Shown here: in pieces, positions 3,922-32,428 of the stretch
Layout: each line of letters starts with the position of its first letter
How positions within the stretch are numbered: the first letter of the stretch is position 1
Virus record (IMG/VR): IMGVR_UViG_2690316184_000005
Span: 1-32,428 of that record
Direction: 5' to 3' (one strand)
Source of the DNA: a virus
Taxonomy: Duplodnaviria; Heunggongvirae; Uroviricota; Caudoviricetes
Length of the DNA: 32,428 nucleotides
Position numbers and translations under genes: made by a program
The notes under the pieces: generated by a model
Told to the model about the DNA's origin: nothing
The model's database searches: none
Seen by the model: the letters and a program-made list of their open reading frames with translations, nothing else

Positions 3922-4042
3922 TTCATTGCTCCAGACGAATGATATGATGCAACCATGATGTGATTGCATACAGAAATGGTACTATTGAGTATTTATCCAG
4001 TAGGTTACGATGCCATTCCACCCAACTGGTGAGGCATCAAGG

Positions 4043-4309
4043 ATGTACAGCAAATACGACGAGGCGCAGTTTCACTTGAGACTTCCGCATGAACTCCACG
4101 CGAAAATTAAGCAGCGTGCGAAGATGAATAACAGATCGCTGAACTCAGAGATAATTGCAGCGATTGAAGAATCATTGGATAAACAAAACTCTGCATCTGT
4201 TTACATTGACGATGCAGAGCGTATGGCAGAACAACAATCTGAGATGGTTAAGAAAATTGTCTTTGATACGCTTAAGACCATGTATAGCAATAATAAAAAG
4301 GAAACATAG
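4043..4309 (+). CDS. mnt: Mnt-like ribbon-helix-helix repressor (Arc/MetJ fold)
   Basis: 'FHLRLPHELHAKIKQRAKMNNRSLNSEIIAAIEESL...DDAERMAEQQSEMVKKIVFDTLK' parallels P22 Mnt ('FNFRMPMEVREKLKFRAEANGRSMNSELLQIVQDAL...NDAERLADEQSELVKKMVFDTLK' as recalled). Start chosen at ATG 4043 (GGTGAGG RBS 8 nt upstream); track start 4010 also possible. Confidence 0.7.
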   Translation: MYSKYDEAQFHLRLPHELHAKIKQRAKMNNRSLNSEIIAAIEESLDKQNSASVYIDDAERMAEQQSEMVKKIVFDTLKTMYSNNKKET

Positions 4310-4379
4310 AAATCTAGTTTCCGGCTAAAATGGCATTTCCTTCATGATATCCTGTGAAAAACTAAGGAGAGTTAGCCAT

Positions 4380-4865
4380 ATGAAAAAATCACTGTTAATT
4401 ATCCCGCTTCTGCTGGTTGGATGCGCAAAAGTAAGTGACTATCAAGCAAGTTGCGAACAACGCTATCAAAAGCTTAGCGATATGGCTAATTGCCTTGATA
4501 CCAGTGTGAAGAACGACTCACGCATGGCATCAGCACCAACACCTAAGCTGTATGTCCTTGCTGCAAAGATGCTCGGGCAAGGTGTCGATGAAGGCAAGAT
4601 AAGTGACGCACAGGCAAGACTTGAGCTTCAGAATCTTTATGTTCAATTACAAAGCCAAGAACAAGCCCAACAAATAGCACAAAGCCAAGCATTCCAGCAG
4701 GCTTTATTGAATTATCAGGCTGTAAACACAATGCAAGCGATCGAGCAAAAAGCGCGCCAGCCTGTTATAACTCAACCTTACCCAACACGCGTTGACACAT
4801 ATACAAACTGCAATTCAGGATTTGGAAACACGGTAACATGCAACAGTAGCAGTAACATCAGATAA
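4380..4865 (+). CDS. Predicted lipoprotein with Gln-rich coiled-coil-like region; function unknown (candidate superinfection-exclusion/moron protein)
   Basis: Signal peptide plus lipobox 'MKKSLLIIPLLLVGC'; AAGGAGA RBS 9 nt upstream of ATG 4380; same strand and immediately downstream of mnt. Confidence 0.65.
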   Translation: MKKSLLIIPLLLVGCAKVSDYQASCEQRYQKLSDMANCLDTSVKNDSRMASAPTPKLYVLAAKMLGQGVDEGKISDAQARLELQNLYVQLQSQEQAQQIAQSQAFQQALLNYQAVNTMQAIEQKARQPVITQPYPTRVDTYTNCNSGFGNTVTCNSSSNIR

Positions 4866-4955
4866 CAATCAGCAAAGGTATCGCCTATGCAGAGGGATAC
4901 GATAAACCTCGCGTTCTACATATTTGGTTTTTGCACGTTCCTGGTGTTTGAAAGG

Positions 4956-7235
4956 CTATTCTGACAACGAATCAGACTTCGCACCCTGCGTCAGTGCATT
5001 AATCGCTTTTTGCGCTTGCTGCATGGCTTTCTCAAACGCTGTCGATCCGCGTGGGGTGTTTGCCATTCGGAGCATTGCATTTCTGAATGGCTCGCTCTCA
5101 TAGGCGCGAGTAAGAAGTCCGTAGCTTACTGCTGCGCCAGTTGTCGCCGGGTTCATTGCCGTCCCATATCCGATAATGAACGGGATGGTTTGCTGCCCTG
5201 TTGGTGTTGTTACTGCCGCTTTTGCTGCCTGCTGAGTGGACTGAAGGTAGTTTTTCAATCCTTTCAGATAAGCGGCTTCCTGACCTTTAAATGTGATGCC
5301 AGTCTGGTTTTGCAGGATGTTAAGCTGTCGAAGGAACTGGTCAGGGGAACCACCTGATTTCTCCATCGCCTTTCCAATGATGCCATTGCGCATTTGCGCC
5401 CTGCCAACACGACCAACTGAGTTATACAGCGTCTTAATTTCCGATTTGTTCTTGCTGAATAGCATGTTGTTGACAACTTCCGGCGTCAGGTCGCCTTTCA
5501 TGAGAACATTCTTCAGCCTGGTATTCTTTAGTTTCGCCGCTTCGTCAGCGTAGACGGCATTGGCCTGCTGATATTTACGGAGAGTATCGTTGCCAAGATT
5601 CTGACCAATGGCACCATTGATATCGTCTGTCATCGCCTTGTAAACGCGCTGAATGGCGGCATCGGAACGGTTTGGTAACACTGGTCGCTCACCCTTCACG
5701 TCCATTCTGAACTGGCTGCGCAGATCGCTTAATTGCTTCAAATCCAGATTTACCGGACCATCAGGACCAGCATTGCGAACAAGCTCATCACGATAGGACT
5801 GAAGTTTTGAAATAGTCTCGTTATCGGCGACCTTACCAAGCTTCTGCAGGTTAGATATTTCTGTATCAATCTGCTGAATTGCTCGAGCAGGCTGGATATT
5901 GACTCCCGCCATTGCATTCTGAACCTGCTCAAGACGGTTCCCTGCAGCACGACGAATTCCTGATGTTTTCGCTTTAAGGCTGTCAATAACAACAGCTGGA
6001 TCATACTCACCGAATTTATCAGCAAATCTCTGCACCAACTGGCTTCTCGCTTCCTGTTGCGTTGCTCTCATCCCGCTTGTGCCAGCCAGGGGGATATTTT
6101 CCGCTGTCGTCTGCGCCATTTTCCCGACGCGGGAAGTAGGCTGTAACAGGTCTGTGGTGTGCAGAGGAACTCCTTCACGCTCTGCAAATCTGATAGCCTG
6201 CTGCGCTTCTGGCGCAATAGCACCACGAACGCCACGATAAGCAGCACCTAATCCACGTCCGGCAGCGTTAATAGCACCGCCAGCCAGCACACCAACGCCT
6301 AAATCGGTGGCGAGGGCTTCCGCATCATCTTTCGCACTATTTGCAGCAAGTGATCCAACTGCGTTTTCTGCGAGAAGTCGTGTTGCACCCTGAGCAATTC
6401 GACCAGCAAGTGTTGGTGCCTGTACCGCCGCTCTCTCAACGCCAGCAGGAGTGAGGTAAGGCAATGCTTCAGCAAACACCCTGCCCTCTGTCGTTTGTGG
6501 AGTCAGCGCGCCTTGCTGAAGGCCAAAGTCCTGCTCTAATCCCTGCGTTGTTACTCGTGGCGCTGGTTGATATGTACCATCGCCAATGCCGAGTTTACCG
6601 CCAGCCCATGCAGCCGCACTTGTTACAGCATCGGCAACTGATGCAGGTATGTTTGCCACGTTCACGCCAGCCTGCACCAGTCCGCGACCAGTTTCAGCCG
6701 CGGCATTGCCAAGGTCGGAAATGAAACCTCCTTGCTGCTGTGGCGCTGCCTGTGTACTTTGCTGTACAGGCTGTTGTGTAGCTTGATTCTTCCTAGGGAG
6801 GTATTCATCAGCTTGCTGGTTGTGCAGACTCTCCGCATATGCAGTGGCATCGTCAGGATTGTCGAACATACCAAGATGCTTTCCCGTCCTCATGAAGTTA
6901 TCAATAGCTTCATCATCAGACATAATGCGACCATCATCACTAACGGTAGGAATCAGCACCTCTCTACCATCTATATTGGTAGACATGCTCCGCACAGTGC
7001 TAATGCTGCCATCAGAGTTTTTAACAACAGGCCGATTGTGAATGTCAATATTACCCTTCTCTAGCAGACCTCTAGGGTAAGCAGAGTAAAACGCTTGTTT
7101 TGCCTGCTCTGCATTTTCTCCGGCTTGCGGGGCCACGACTTCATTGAAGTATTGTTCCTGAGCCTGCGCTTTTTGTTCTGGTGCTAACGCCTGATACTGT
7201 GGAGAAGCGATAACATCTTTCCATGCTTTAGCCAT
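4956..7235 (-). CDS. Ejection (internal virion) protein, gp16 position of P22-like phages
   Basis: Synteny: last gene of the gp14-gp7-gp20-gp16 block; start overlaps upstream stop (TAATG); 759 aa with Ala/Gln-rich low-complexity stretches. Confidence 0.65.
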   Translation of the reverse strand: MAKAWKDVIASPQYQALAPEQKAQAQEQYFNEVVAPQAGENAEQAKQAFYSAYPRGLLEKGNIDIHNRPVVKNSDGSISTVRSMSTNIDGREVLIPTVSDDGRIMSDDEAIDNFMRTGKHLGMFDNPDDATAYAESLHNQQADEYLPRKNQATQQPVQQSTQAAPQQQGGFISDLGNAAAETGRGLVQAGVNVANIPASVADAVTSAAAWAGGKLGIGDGTYQPAPRVTTQGLEQDFGLQQGALTPQTTEGRVFAEALPYLTPAGVERAAVQAPTLAGRIAQGATRLLAENAVGSLAANSAKDDAEALATDLGVGVLAGGAINAAGRGLGAAYRGVRGAIAPEAQQAIRFAEREGVPLHTTDLLQPTSRVGKMAQTTAENIPLAGTSGMRATQQEARSQLVQRFADKFGEYDPAVVIDSLKAKTSGIRRAAGNRLEQVQNAMAGVNIQPARAIQQIDTEISNLQKLGKVADNETISKLQSYRDELVRNAGPDGPVNLDLKQLSDLRSQFRMDVKGERPVLPNRSDAAIQRVYKAMTDDINGAIGQNLGNDTLRKYQQANAVYADEAAKLKNTRLKNVLMKGDLTPEVVNNMLFSKNKSEIKTLYNSVGRVGRAQMRNGIIGKAMEKSGGSPDQFLRQLNILQNQTGITFKGQEAAYLKGLKNYLQSTQQAAKAAVTTPTGQQTIPFIIGYGTAMNPATTGAAVSYGLLTRAYESEPFRNAMLRMANTPRGSTAFEKAMQQAQKAINALTQGAKSDSLSE

Positions 7236-8590
7236 TAATCACCCCATAGTGAAGAAAAGTTACTGCTGGTTGCTGGCTGTGATACCTGTGCAGGTTGAGA
7301 TTGCTGCCGCTGTGATTTTCCAACATTAACGTTATATTGTTGGTTGTAATTGTTGGTGTATTCCTGAATCTCACGAATCGACTGCTGCATAGCCTCCGGG
7401 CTTGAATAGTCAACCTGCGGCATCCCCTGAAAATACATCTTCGCTTCTGCAACGGTGTTAATACCACTGGCACCCATGTCCCTTGCTGCCGCCACACCCT
7501 GATTCTGCATTCTGCCCTGAATACGTTGTGCTGAGTTATATAACTGGCGCTGCTCTTTTCCTGTTAATCGGCTGCGAACATCAGCACCAATTGCTGGATT
7601 ACCTGCACCGCCTGTCATTCCTGTCATGAAATCGAGAGCAGAAGCGTCTGCATTTGCGATCGCGTCGATATCCTTCTTCATGGCATAGTTTTGTGCTGAT
7701 GCAGACGATGTTGCAGGCGCTGCGATTGAACTGGCAGGAACGCGAACCATATTCCCCTCGTTGTCGATGCCTTCGTAGAACGCATTAGCCCCAGCGCCGT
7801 GAAGCTTCCCGCCTACCGTTACAGTTCTGCCATCTGATAACTGAACTGTACGCTCATTATTCCCAACCGACCCTTTCATTGATGCTCTCTGCATCGATAA
7901 ATCCTGACCGCGCATCGTGATATTCTGACCACGTGCTGTTAGCGCCTCTCCAGCCTGATTGCTGCGGATTGTCTCTGCCAGCCTGCCTCGGTCAATTTCA
8001 CGACCAGCCATCTTATCCTGAACATTGAAGTAATCAATCGGACCGAGAGCAGCCATCCCAAGGTGATCAACAAACTCACCAAATCCTGAAGGGTTCTGCT
8101 GATACATTTGAGCAACGCTGTTAGGGTCAACACCGACGCGAGTCAGTTCCTTGGCGTTGTTTTGCAGCCATGATTGCATTGCTTCTGGAGACGATGACGC
8201 AAGGCGTGCGCCAGCCGCTAAGGTGCCGATAGAATTACGCTGATCTTCATCAATGAATCCCATGCCTTTACGAACGGATTCAATCTGGTCTGGATATTGA
8301 GTAGCCAACTGACGCAAAGCACCGCGATCACCAGACGCATAAGCATTAGCGTACGCCTGCTGAAATTCTTTCTGCCGCTGAGCCTGCTTTTCCTGCTGAA
8401 ACACCCCTGCAATACCTGAAAGGCCTTGCAAAGCAGTCAGCCCAACATTGTTAGCGCCTGAACGCTCAATATCATTGTTCTGCCTGATAAGCTGAAGCGT
8501 ATTGCCGATGTCATTTACGCTCGGAGCGTTTGAGTTGACGCCGCCGATACCAGCCAACAATCCGCCGTTTGTTCCTTGCCAAGTAGCCAT
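7235..8590 (-). CDS. Ejection protein, gp20-like
   Basis: Synteny and size (451 aa vs about 471 in P22 as recalled); AGGGG RBS; translationally coupled to neighbours. Confidence 0.7.
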
Positions 8591-30102: not shown

Positions 30103-30173
30103 AGAATACTACAGGTATTCAAAGCAATCAATACTCAGGGTATTTTTAGTTTAAGTACCTTAGCTATTAGAAT
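30103..30173. promoter_or_regulatory. Right operator region: OR1 (30104-30120), OR2 (30130-30146), weak OR3 (30154-30170); pR (minus strand -35 30126-30131, -10 30103-30108); pRM (-10 TAGAAT 30168-30173, leaderless cI mRNA)
   Basis: 17-bp dyads GAATACTACAGGTATTC and CAATACTCAGGGTATTT with about 25-bp centre spacing; minus strand TTGATT-N17-TATTCT; TAGAAT 7 nt before the cI ATG. Confidence 0.6.
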
Positions 30174-30179
30174 TAAGCT

Positions 30180-30896
30180 ATGGAAAATAAAAAATCACTG
30201 ACGACAGAACAGCTCGAAGACGCTAAGCGGCTTAAGGCTTTGTATGAGTCAAAAAAGAAAGAATTGGGAATAACCCAATACTCAATCGCTGATGAACTGG
30301 GTATCACCCAAGGAGCGGTAGGGCATTATCTTAATGGCAGAAACGCGCTAAACGTTGAGGTTGCATCTGGTTTTGCGCGATTGTTGCAAGTCTCAATTGC
30401 TGATTTTAGCCAGTCAATTGCTGCCAAGGTTGCAGAACAGGCAGAAAGCCTTAAGAGCGATGCCAACGTAAGGTATGCAGGGGAATACAGAGCAGGAAAG
30501 AGGTATCCGGTGTTAAGCAGTATCCAGGCTGGCTCGTGGTGTGAAGCATGCGAACCATACACCATTAAAGACATAGATGTTTGGCTTGAGTCTGACGCGC
30601 ATATTCAAGGTAATGCGTTTTGGCTTAAAGTGGAAGGTGATTCAATGACGGCACCGGTTGGGTTAAGCATTCCAGAGGGAACATTCGTTCTTTTCGATAC
30701 CGGAAGGGAGGCGATCAACGGCAGCTTGGTCATAGCAAAACTTTCTGACTCTAACGAAGCAACATTCAAGAAGCTGATAATCGACGGCGGAAATAAATAC
30801 CTCAAGGGACTTAATCCTGCATGGCCTCTCATGCCAATCAATGGAAACTGCAAGATTATAGGCGTTGCAATTGAGACAAAACTAAGGCTGGTTTGA
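30180..30896 (+). CDS. cI: CI-type prophage repressor (HTH + LexA/S24-like autocleavage domain)
   Basis: 'LTTEQLEDAKRLKALYESKKKELGITQYSIADELGITQGAVGHYLNG' and C-terminal 'AFWLKVEGDSMTAPVG...FKKLI' parallel lambda CI; helix residues differ, so different immunity specificity. Confidence 0.9.
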   Translation: MENKKSLTTEQLEDAKRLKALYESKKKELGITQYSIADELGITQGAVGHYLNGRNALNVEVASGFARLLQVSIADFSQSIAAKVAEQAESLKSDANVRYAGEYRAGKRYPVLSSIQAGSWCEACEPYTIKDIDVWLESDAHIQGNAFWLKVEGDSMTAPVGLSIPEGTFVLFDTGREAINGSLVIAKLSDSNEATFKKLIIDGGNKYLKGLNPAWPLMPINGNCKIIGVAIETKLRLV

Positions 30897-30913
30897 TCAC
30901 GCAAGGGGCGATT

Positions 30914-31282
30914 ATGGTTGGAACCGCTATAGCAAGCTTTTTTGCGATGTTGGCAATCTCGACAATTTACGGCTTAGCGCATGCTTTTATTGCGAAATCT
31001 CTATCAGAAAAAATAAGCCAGGCTTGGGCGCATAGATCAGCTCGTTTCATGATTCTTGTGATCATAGCAATACAAGGGATATCTGCATTTATCCTCTATG
31101 GATCAAGCTTATACCTATTGTATCAAGGCGCGACATTTACGCCTTACACCAGTGATTACGGAACTCTATACGATGGTAGTGAAGACATCACTGTGGCTTG
31201 GATCGTCTTTGGTTTATCTATGGCCGTGTCTGTTGTAGCAGACATCATTAAGGTAATTCTCGTCTTAACCTTCGCTGACTAA
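30914..31282 (+). CDS. Small three-TM membrane protein co-oriented downstream of cI (rexB-position gene; candidate exclusion/abortive-infection protein)
   Basis: ATG 30914 with AAGGGG RBS 5 nt upstream; three hydrophobic segments (approx. residues 2-27, 45-70, 90-120); track TTG start 30893 rejected. Confidence 0.6.
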   Translation: MVGTAIASFFAMLAISTIYGLAHAFIAKSLSEKISQAWAHRSARFMILVIIAIQGISAFILYGSSLYLLYQGATFTPYTSDYGTLYDGSEDITVAWIVFGLSMAVSVVADIIKVILVLTFAD

Positions 31283-31367: not shown

Positions 31368-31455
31368 AAATATCCTTTGTATTCATTTGCTTATCATTAT
31401 TTCACCAAAAATAAATACCTTGGGTATTTACACAATAAAATACCTACAGTATTCT
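31368..31455 (+). promoter_or_regulatory. Left operator/promoter region: OL sites 31368-31384, 31412-31428, 31437-31453; pL (-35 TTTACA 31427-31432, -10 TATTCT 31450-31455)
   Basis: 17-bp dyads AAATATCCTTTGTATTC, AAATACCTTGGGTATTT, AAATACCTACAGTATTC share half-sites AAATAC/GTATTC with OR; -10 hexamer identical to pR. Confidence 0.55.
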
Positions 31456-31501
31456 TTAGCCATCAGCAGGACGCTGGAAGCCAAACGGAACAGATTGGCA
31501 G

Positions 31502-31542
31502 GCTCTTTAACATTGATGGGATTGTCCCGCCGAAATGCGGGA
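31502..31542 (+). promoter_or_regulatory. nutL (boxA + boxB hairpin) in the N leader
   Basis: GCTCTTTAACA (boxA-like) followed 12 nt later by TCCCGCCGAAATGCGGGA hairpin; identical to nutR elements. Confidence 0.6.
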
Positions 31543-31649
31543 ACCAAAGAGTAGTTGGCTTTGGGGTGACGTGAAGTGCAGCTGCACGACGGCAACCGGA
31601 AGATAAGCACCCGGCGCGTCACCGCCAAAGTCAATCATCGGAGGTCAAC

Positions 31650-31949
31650 ATGACAGTAGTCATTACATATCTGGCTGACGATAACGCCAGAAATCGCCGC
31701 AGAGCACGCAGACAGGCTCAACGTGAACAGGCAATGCAAGAGCAGCGACTGGCGAGAAAAATTGCGCTAAAGCTCTCTGGTTGCGTCAGAGCAGATAAAG
31801 CAGCATCACTCGGAAGCCTTCGCTGCAAGAAGGCAGAAGAGGTCGAGAGTAAACGGAATCGTATTTACTACCGCAAGCCACGCAGTGAAATGGGTGTGAC
31901 TTGTGTTGGTCGCCAGAAAATGAAATTAGGCAGCAAACCACTTATTTGA
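31650..31949 (+). CDS. N: N-type transcription antiterminator
   Basis: Arg-rich motif 'NARNRRRARRQAQREQ' near N-terminus; C-terminus 'IYYRKPRSEMGVTCVGRQKMKLGSKPLI' parallels lambda N 'TWYSKPGERGITCSGRQKIKGKSIPLI'; GGAGG RBS. Confidence 0.85.
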   Translation: MTVVITYLADDNARNRRRARRQAQREQAMQEQRLARKIALKLSGCVRADKAASLGSLRCKKAEEVESKRNRIYYRKPRSEMGVTCVGRQKMKLGSKPLI

Positions 31950-31957
31950 GGTGAGAT

Positions 31958-32428
31958 ATGACAAAATCATGGAGCGTACCTTTTCCTGAATCAGAAACTG
32001 AACATGATGGAATGCCTGTTTTCTGGAGATTCCAGGCGACAGTTGAAGAAGATGGGATAAAAATATTCGCACTTCAATATATAGCTTTTCATCAGACAGA
32101 GCATTATGCATGGTTGGTTCCTGCGCATTGGATTGTTAATTTTAAACCAGCACCAAATCAGTGGTTACAGGAATGGAAACAAAGGAGAAATAGATATGCA
32201 ATTAAGAAAGTAGCAAAAAATGCAGAAAGATCTTTTGCATTCCCAACGAAGAAACTTGCTATTGAAAGTTTATTGCGTCGGAAGAAATACCATTTAATGA
32301 GAATAAAACAAGATTTGGCTGTTGTATCAACTCTTGTTGATGGGATGAAAAATATTGATACATCAACACCAGATATTGAATATAACTTTGGACACAACCA
32401 AGAAACAGAAAATTGGGTATTTTATTAG
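31958..32428 (+). CDS. Hypothetical protein, first gene after N in the early-left operon; AT-rich
   Basis: 156-aa ORF, GAGGTGAG RBS 5 nt upstream of ATG 31958; basic central helix 'WKQRRNRYAIKKVAKNAER...LLRRKKYHLMRIKQ'; no family recognised. Confidence 0.55.
   Translation: MTKSWSVPFPESETEHDGMPVFWRFQATVEEDGIKIFALQYIAFHQTEHYAWLVPAHWIVNFKPAPNQWLQEWKQRRNRYAIKKVAKNAERSFAFPTKKLAIESLLRRKKYHLMRIKQDLAVVSTLVDGMKNIDTSTPDIEYNFGHNQETENWVFY

Follow-up and report, generated by a model that had tools for sequence, protein, structure and literature searches.

The window analyzed here, a stretch of 32,428 nucleotides (positions 1 to 32,428), comprises most of the genome of a P22-like (Lederbergvirus-type) temperate podophage. 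Its closest relatives are the Escherichia phages HZ41, APC_JM3.2 and IME10 (~96% identity over 64–71% of positions 7500–32428), and the immunity, N and gp45 region is shared instead with phage vB_EcoP-611R6, which is typical lambdoid mosaicism. The features of this region are summarized in Table 1. The final gene of the window encodes a protein of 156 amino acids and is the subject of this analysis.

Table 1. Features of the immunity and early-left region, in window coordinates
Feature	Position	Strand	Description
OR operators	30105-30168		three copies of AATAYC-N5-TATT, between the cI-like and cro-like genes
cI-like gene	30180-30896		HTH and S24 peptidase
Gene for a 122–129-aa protein	30893-31282, or from ATG 30914	+	several hydrophobic helices; match to phrog_6534 (unknown function)
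OL operators AATATCCTTTGTATT, AATACCTTGGGTATT, AATACCTACAGTATT	31369-31383, 31414-31428, 31439-31453		AATAYC-N5-TATT motif
pL promoter	31427-31455	+	TTTACA, 17-nt spacer, TATTCT; overlaps OL2 and OL1
boxA of the nutL-like site, GCTCTTTAACA	31502-31512	+
boxB-like hairpin of the nutL-like site	31525-31542	+	UCCCGC-CGAAAU-GCGGGA; in both MFE and centroid folds
N leader RNA	31553-31640	+	long stable hairpin just 5΄ of the N ribosome-binding site
N-like antiterminator gene	31650-31949	+	99 aa, arginine-rich N terminus; phrog_271, E 3.7e-36
3΄ end of the N allele, ending in VTCVGRQKMKLGSKPLI and the stop codon	31890-31949	+	final ~19 codons homologous to the untranslated N–gp45 spacer of HK97/933W
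Shared cassette, 5΄ edge TTATTTGAGGTGAGAT	from ~31943		adjoins N directly
Shine–Dalgarno sequence GAGGTGAG of the 156-aa gene	31948-31955	+	overlaps the TGA stop codon of N; sequence reading
156-aa ORF, HK97 gp45 / 933W L0079 family (phrog_1636)	31958-32428	+	ATG start; TAG stop (32426-32428) forms the final bases of the window; product basic and predicted soluble

We searched the plus strand from position 31200 to the end of the window and found that pL is the only promoter-like site; neither a sigma-70-like promoter nor a plus-strand terminator was found between pL and the ORF, in agreement with an earlier note on this DNA, which had described the ORF as the first gene past N on the pL transcript. 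The operator motif has 16 matches in the window, compared with 3.2 expected by chance, and these cluster at OL and OR. By analogy with the nutL sites of lambda and P22, the boxA and boxB-like elements downstream of pL were assigned as a putative nutL site. The N-like gene matches a family annotated as ‘anti-termination protein N-like’ (phrog_271), and its match to the Pfam N_peptide model is weak (E 0.014). The RNA from positions 31456 to 31660 folds with an MFE of –72.2 kcal/mol (z = –3.2 versus shuffled sequences), and its hairpin recalls the RNase III-sensitive leader structure of lambda, which controls N translation. On the other side of the operators, directly 3΄ of the cI-like repressor gene and therefore in the rexAB slot, lies the gene for the 122–129-aa protein, for which no match was found in Pfam, NCBIfam or PADLOC. 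This gene is presumably co-transcribed with cI in lysogens, and its sequence makes it a candidate for a prophage-expressed exclusion or defence membrane protein.

The 156-aa ORF starts 8 nt after the stop codon of N. Its ATG–TAG frame matches exactly the reading of the earlier note, which had also called the gene AT-rich; the measured GC content is 35.0% (GC3 24.8%), compared with 47.9% for the window. An alignment of 20 homologues with 55–85% identity contains 40 invariant columns, and the dN/dS values (Nei–Gojobori; all pairs without saturated synonymous sites) are 0.07–0.15. Because full-length homologues extend down to 55% identity, the dN/dS values are this low and a confident AlphaFold model is obtained, we consider it nearly certain that the ORF is a coding, functional and strongly constrained phage gene. 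The possibility of a spurious or decaying ORF without function draws on the lack of annotation and on nothing else; it is refuted by the dN/dS values, by the model quality (pLDDT 94.8), by a superfamily of 87 representatives, and by full-length conservation to Pectobacterium, Brenneria, Cronobacter and Rosenbergiella, so that we assign it practically no weight.

The protein matches the phrog_1636 profile (‘unknown function’) with an E value of 2.7e-112, over residues 1–156 of a 156-position profile. At the nucleotide level, the gene is 98.5–99.8% identical to HK97 gp45 (AAF31125.1), 933W L0079 (NP_049479.1, also ST933Wp19), phi24B vb_24B_11c, Stx2-86 orf57, Min27 ORF20, and the copies in BP-4795 and dozens of Stx1- and Stx2-converting phages. 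In all of these phages the annotation is ‘hypothetical protein’ or ‘Gp45’. Among 5426 complete E. coli genomes, 598 (11%) carry the gene, with up to four copies per genome and always as ‘hypothetical protein’; matches on plasmids were traced to misassemblies or to circles of excised phage DNA. When 5.8 billion proteins were searched, 33 homologues were obtained, all from Enterobacterales (E. coli, Cronobacter, Pectobacterium, Brenneria, Rosenbergiella and Symbiopectobacterium), of which the full-length ones are ~156–163 aa long. A full-text literature search found no paper on the gp45/L0079 gene. Judging from these sequence matches, the ORF is almost certainly one that has already been catalogued and never characterized; its finding here is a correct re-discovery, and its sequence contains nothing surprising for a specialist.

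We aligned the flanks of the gene among its carriers and found that homology between otherwise unrelated phages begins 17–60 nt 5΄ of the ATG, and that the boundaries of the homology are sharp. The AT-rich cassette is 97–100% identical at the nucleotide level in HK97 (a siphovirus), in 933W-type Stx phages (Sepvirinae) and in P22-like phages. The idea that the gene was acquired horizontally, which had been advanced earlier from its low GC content, is thus borne out by an AT-rich cassette that is near-identical in unlike phages and ends abruptly. In both HK97 and 933W, the TGA stop codon of N lies where the shared segment begins. Since the last ~19 codons of the N allele in the window match the untranslated spacer of these two phages, the C terminus of N is mosaic and belongs to the flank of the shared cassette.

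Past the stop codon, homology among the relatives continues for ~100 nt to an intrinsic terminator that lies ~110–130 nt after the stop. In the closest relatives, alignment showed that a segment of ~125 nt located 3΄ of the gene is identical to the ral–ea10 intergenic region of lambda. This region has been reported to encode an Hfq-dependent sRNA, LPR1/PreS, whose 3΄ end is the terminator tL2a (bioRxiv 10.1101/2024.10.31.621285). The PreS segment was located at 4472–4600 in both HK97 (L003) and 933W (L004), at 7217–7350 in 611R6 (L001), where the terminator hairpin differs, at 2766–2890 in a further locus (L007), and at about 905–1045 on the minus strand in lambda (L031). A search of the N-to-cIII stretch of HK97 against Rfam gave no match, and PreS was seen only through the alignment to lambda. 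PreS and the terminator lie beyond the end of the window, and they are present in 611R6 (98.3% identity over the region) and in an E. coli contig encoding a 100% identical protein. The 156-aa gene and the PreS segment travel together in the relatives.

In these relatives, the gene is accordingly located between N and PreS/tL2a, which is the slot of ral, orf28 and sieB in lambda; in P22 the same slot contains sieB/esc, ral, orf78, orf87 and 17. The earlier description of a slot after N that holds genes of the ral and sieB type therefore agrees with what lambda (ral, sieB) and P22 (ral, 17, sieB) carry there. Phage phi367 (L002) keeps ral, and its cassette, AATTATTTGAGGTGAGAT–ORF–TACGAATAA, is a discrete insertion between the 3΄ flank of ral and PreS. 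The insertion is bounded by a 6-bp direct repeat, GCACTG (7226–7231 and 7730–7735), one copy of which corresponds to the uninterrupted lambda sequence. This repeat could be the footprint of the recombination event that placed the cassette.

The operon architecture suggests that the gene is immediate-early, that is, read along with N from the onset of pL activity and located upstream of the first recognizable terminator. From its position behind pL and from the terminator found downstream in the relatives, the protein would be produced during the first minutes after infection or induction and would not require N, and the gene would be silent in a lysogen. As the stop codon of the gene is also the end of the window, the argument draws on the relatives, and it concerns intrinsic terminators only.

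The predicted product has a mass of 18.6 kDa and a pI of 9.07. Its hydropathy (maximum 19-residue Kyte–Doolittle value 0.56, GRAVY –0.59) includes no transmembrane segment and marks it as a soluble protein. Residues 73–117 contain 16 K/R against 2 D/E, with a net charge of +14. The central helix that had been described as strongly basic was thus right as to a basic region and not as to a single helix: in the model described below, residues 73–117 span a loop, a short strand and half of a helix at 98–130.

An HMM search of 1.84 billion cluster representatives returned 87 matches with E < 1e-3 (representatives at 50% clustering), most of them stand-alone proteins of 130–155 aa. Two apparent domain fusions, P0066 (940 aa) and P0080 (444 aa), were discarded as repetitive or low-complexity false positives. 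We aligned 75 members, which fall in phrog_1636, phrog_13631, phrog_25384 and phrog_28215, all of unknown function. No Pfam domain was found in the protein or in any of the 75 members, a search of NCBIfam with the protein gave no usable match, and a profile search of a large database returned only the name ‘hypothetical protein’. Searches of the PDB sequences with the single sequence and with the profile had a best E value of 0.13, with a reticulocyte-binding protein and twinfilin as hits, and were treated as chance.

An initial structure model from 20 close homologues was poor (pLDDT 59.5) and was replaced by an AlphaFold2 model from the 75 diverse sequences (pLDDT 94.8, pTM 0.82). In this model, three long antiparallel strands (19–30, 33–46 and 50–55), two short helices and a short strand (83–86) are followed by a helix of 33 residues (98–130) and a well-ordered tail with the motif YNFGHNxETExW. 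No structure in the PDB shows the predicted architecture, in which a sheet is combined with a 33-residue helix and a packed C-terminal tail. The earlier note had named a Foldseek search as a check; in this search, 13 viral proteins in BFVD were matched (E 3e-7 to 8e-4, probability 1.00), all of them ‘uncharacterized’, and no solved structure was matched. Phages with the same fold include Erwinia phiEa2809 (A0A0A0YXB3), Achromobacter phiAxp-3, Delftia RG-2014, Rhizobium RHph_N38, Sinorhizobium ort11, Tenacibaculum Gundel_1 and Cellulophaga phi17:2. By HMM, their proteins belong to the same sequence superfamily, with 12–23% identity to the 156-aa protein, and they differ from it in lacking the N-terminal 18 residues and the YNFGHNxETExW tail of the enterobacterial clade. 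The predicted fold would therefore be phage-wide, and it carries neither a structural nor a functional annotation.

We further examined the conservation of charge and catalytic residues in this superfamily. Ten basic positions (R24, 75, K83, K84, K87, 92, K98, R108, K109 and 118) are K/R in 61–97% of 62 relatives with at most 27% identity, and K87 reaches the upper value. In addition, the pI exceeds 8 in 68 of the 75 members. These sequence comparisons show the basic character to be a family trait across the superfamily. An HxT motif resembling that of 2H phosphoesterases was rejected, as it is a single motif and the 2H fold was not matched. A possible catalytic pair, E46/H115, was also rejected: it is conserved in distant members and looks like a co-varying contact. 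Because these two residues are replaced by Q and R in the enterobacterial clade, and no catalytic fold was matched, an enzymatic role is unlikely.

We compared the protein with known early and anti-defence proteins. The earlier suggestion of a ral-, sieB- or kil-type gene did not hold, as neither BLASTP nor hhalign detected similarity and there is no transmembrane segment. BLASTP against the Ral protein of phi367 gave an E value of 23, and no local alignment with the Kil protein of phi367 was found at E ≤ 100. Because the gene co-occurs with ral in phi367, where the two are adjacent, and in phi296, it is not simply a substitute for ral. The hhalign probability was 0.2% for P22 SieB and 2% for P22 gp17, a protein that allows growth on Fels-2 lysogens. 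A SieB-type gene is further disfavored because the stretch from pL to the gene contains no promoter-like site. No sequence or fold similarity was found to known anti-restriction and anti-defence proteins represented by Pfam models or solved structures (Ocr, ArdA, KlcA/ArdB, Lar, Gad, Tad, Acb, Acr and others), and PADLOC-DB v2 gave no meaningful match, the best being a partial Cas1_II (E 0.018, 12 bits). AntiDefenseFinder has been applied to phages carrying the gene, and only methyltransferases, Ral and Gam were reported (PMC12502783). It follows from this and from the sequence comparisons that the protein belongs to no recognized anti-defence family. The silence of AntiDefenseFinder means that the family is not a known one, and it stays compatible with an anti-defence role as such.

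These comparisons bear on the possibility that the gene protects the lysogen, as a phage-encoded defence, superinfection exclusion or toxic abortive infection function of the SieB, Rex or moron type. The slot holds sieB in lambda and P22, the gene is AT-rich in the manner of a moron, and in some phages its homologue is a lone gene on the opposite strand. However, the gene has no promoter of its own here and should be silent in a lysogen, behind the repressor-controlled pL; moreover, the protein has no transmembrane segment, and the PADLOC and SieB comparisons were negative. We therefore regard a role in lysogen defence as very unlikely.

The genomic contexts of the homologues vary. A 71%-identical homologue starts 3 nt after an N-like gene, and in prophages of Pectobacterium and Brenneria the homologue occupies the distal end of the operon and directly precedes xis–int. 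In Escherichia phage Bas81 (L016) and Salmonella phage NX263 (L015), a short operon on the opposite strand amid structural genes (3994–5291 in both) begins with a 63–64%-identical homologue; a gene for a ParB-like DNA-binding protein follows directly, a RusA-type resolvase gene lies further on, and no lysogeny genes were found in the stretch of these virulent-looking siphophages that was examined. The homologue and the ParB-like protein may form a functional pair. The more distant members occur in early or accessory operons with genes for RdgC, YqaJ, RecE, SSB or CsrA, several of them just before xis/AlpA–int, and one is a lone opposite-strand gene within a tail module. A C5 DNA methylase gene was found on the same strand, a few kilobases away, in five contexts (Pantoea phage Nafs113, Pseudomonas phage Medea1, and prophages of Marinobacterium, Pseudomaricurvus and one further host), and in one context the homologue is located two genes after a Lar restriction-alleviation gene. 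Across these neighborhoods, the gene behaves as a self-contained accessory module of one gene, without any fixed partner.

Some of these neighbors would be expected if the protein had an accessory role in DNA metabolism, binding DNA or a DNA intermediate and aiding phage recombination, replication or integration/excision. Its basic character is conserved, its operons contain RecT, Erf, YqaJ, RecE, SSB, RdgC, ParB-like and RusA genes, and it lies directly 5΄ of xis/AlpA–int in Pectobacterium, Brenneria and other prophages. However, there is no fixed partner gene and the position in the operon varies; the gene is absent from most phages with the same recombination or integration modules, it can also stand alone on the opposite strand within structural modules, and the predicted fold bears no likeness to known folds that bind ssDNA or dsDNA, among them PC4/Whirly, HU, AP2 and excisionase. 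On balance, a role in DNA metabolism is improbable.

Based on the conservation of charge, the slot and the neighbors, we tentatively propose that the 156-aa protein is an accessory factor for counter-defence or host takeover. It would represent a new structural type, would not be an enzyme, would have no kin in Ral, SieB or Kil, and would act by binding a polyanion. The target would be either nucleic acid itself or a host protein engaged in nucleic-acid handling; nucleic-acid binding is suggested with low confidence, from the conserved charge only. Through binding its target, the protein would either neutralize a barrier that the host raises against the entering phage genome or divert a host process. 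We hold this proposal as possible, somewhat short of probable. The earlier note had named an early anti-restriction or host-takeover factor as a candidate, and circumstantial evidence for such a role comes from the predicted early expression, the conserved basic character and neighborhoods rich in DNA methylase, Lar and Ral genes. The last of these associations counts for little, since genes of this kind are common in early-left operons in any case. The proposal is at odds with the fact that many characterized anti-restriction proteins are acidic DNA mimics, whereas the present protein is basic.

A more specific alternative concerns takeover of host transcription or translation, in which the N-terminal β-sheet, as a small Tudor/KOW/SH3-like module, would dock on RNA polymerase or on a different core machine and thereby modulate host or phage gene expression at a very early stage. 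Docking modules of this kind include the C-terminal Tudor domains of UvrD/PcrA, CarD, the KOW domain of NusG, and PipX. The match scores to such small β-barrels (PipX and the C-terminal domains of UvrD/PcrA) were not significant, and the overall architecture differs; we consider this docking unlikely.

Extending the counter-defence or takeover proposal from the single protein to the gp45/L0079 superfamily, one may suppose a new and structurally unprecedented class of immediate-early factors, widespread in phages of Proteobacteria and Bacteroidota, whose conserved basic surface acts on a universal bacterial target. Such a target could be a restriction complex or another nucleic-acid-sensing immune complex, RNA polymerase or a nucleoid protein. 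In this general form the proposal is doubtful.

The gene is among the commonest unannotated genes in E. coli prophages, and Shiga-toxin phages, those of the 933W type and many others, carry it as well. This frequency in Stx and other E. coli prophages makes it a sensible choice for screens of anti-defence or host-takeover functions. It is predicted to share its early transcript with N, and it occupies the slot in which lambdoid phages place functions directed at host and prophage barriers. If the counter-defence or takeover proposal is true, the repertoire of such factors would gain a new fold and probably also a new mechanism, and the protein would bear on the host range of Stx phages. To the catalogued ORF, the present analysis adds a confident model that lacks a counterpart in the PDB, a phage-wide superfamily whose basic surface is conserved, and precise boundaries of the cassette beside PreS.

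Among known systems, the T7 Ocr protein (gene 0.3) offers a functional analogy only: the genes of both proteins are small, non-essential accessory genes, and the present one is, like gene 0.3, predicted to be among the first to be transcribed from the incoming genome, whereas Ocr is an acidic DNA mimic, the present protein is basic (pI 9.1), and the two share neither fold nor sequence. The Ral proteins of lambda and P22 are closer in setting, with the same genomic slot and the same predicted early-left transcription, but Ral has 66 aa instead of 156 and no sequence similarity. The nearest counterparts are gp45 of HK97 and L0079 of 933W, homologues which, like those of phi24B and Stx2-86, carry no assigned function. 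In HK97 and 933W, the same 156-aa protein is encoded directly after N and in the same orientation in the pL operon as in the window, whereas the N protein of those phages has 127 aa compared with 99 aa here, and the backbone into which the gene is set here is P22-like.
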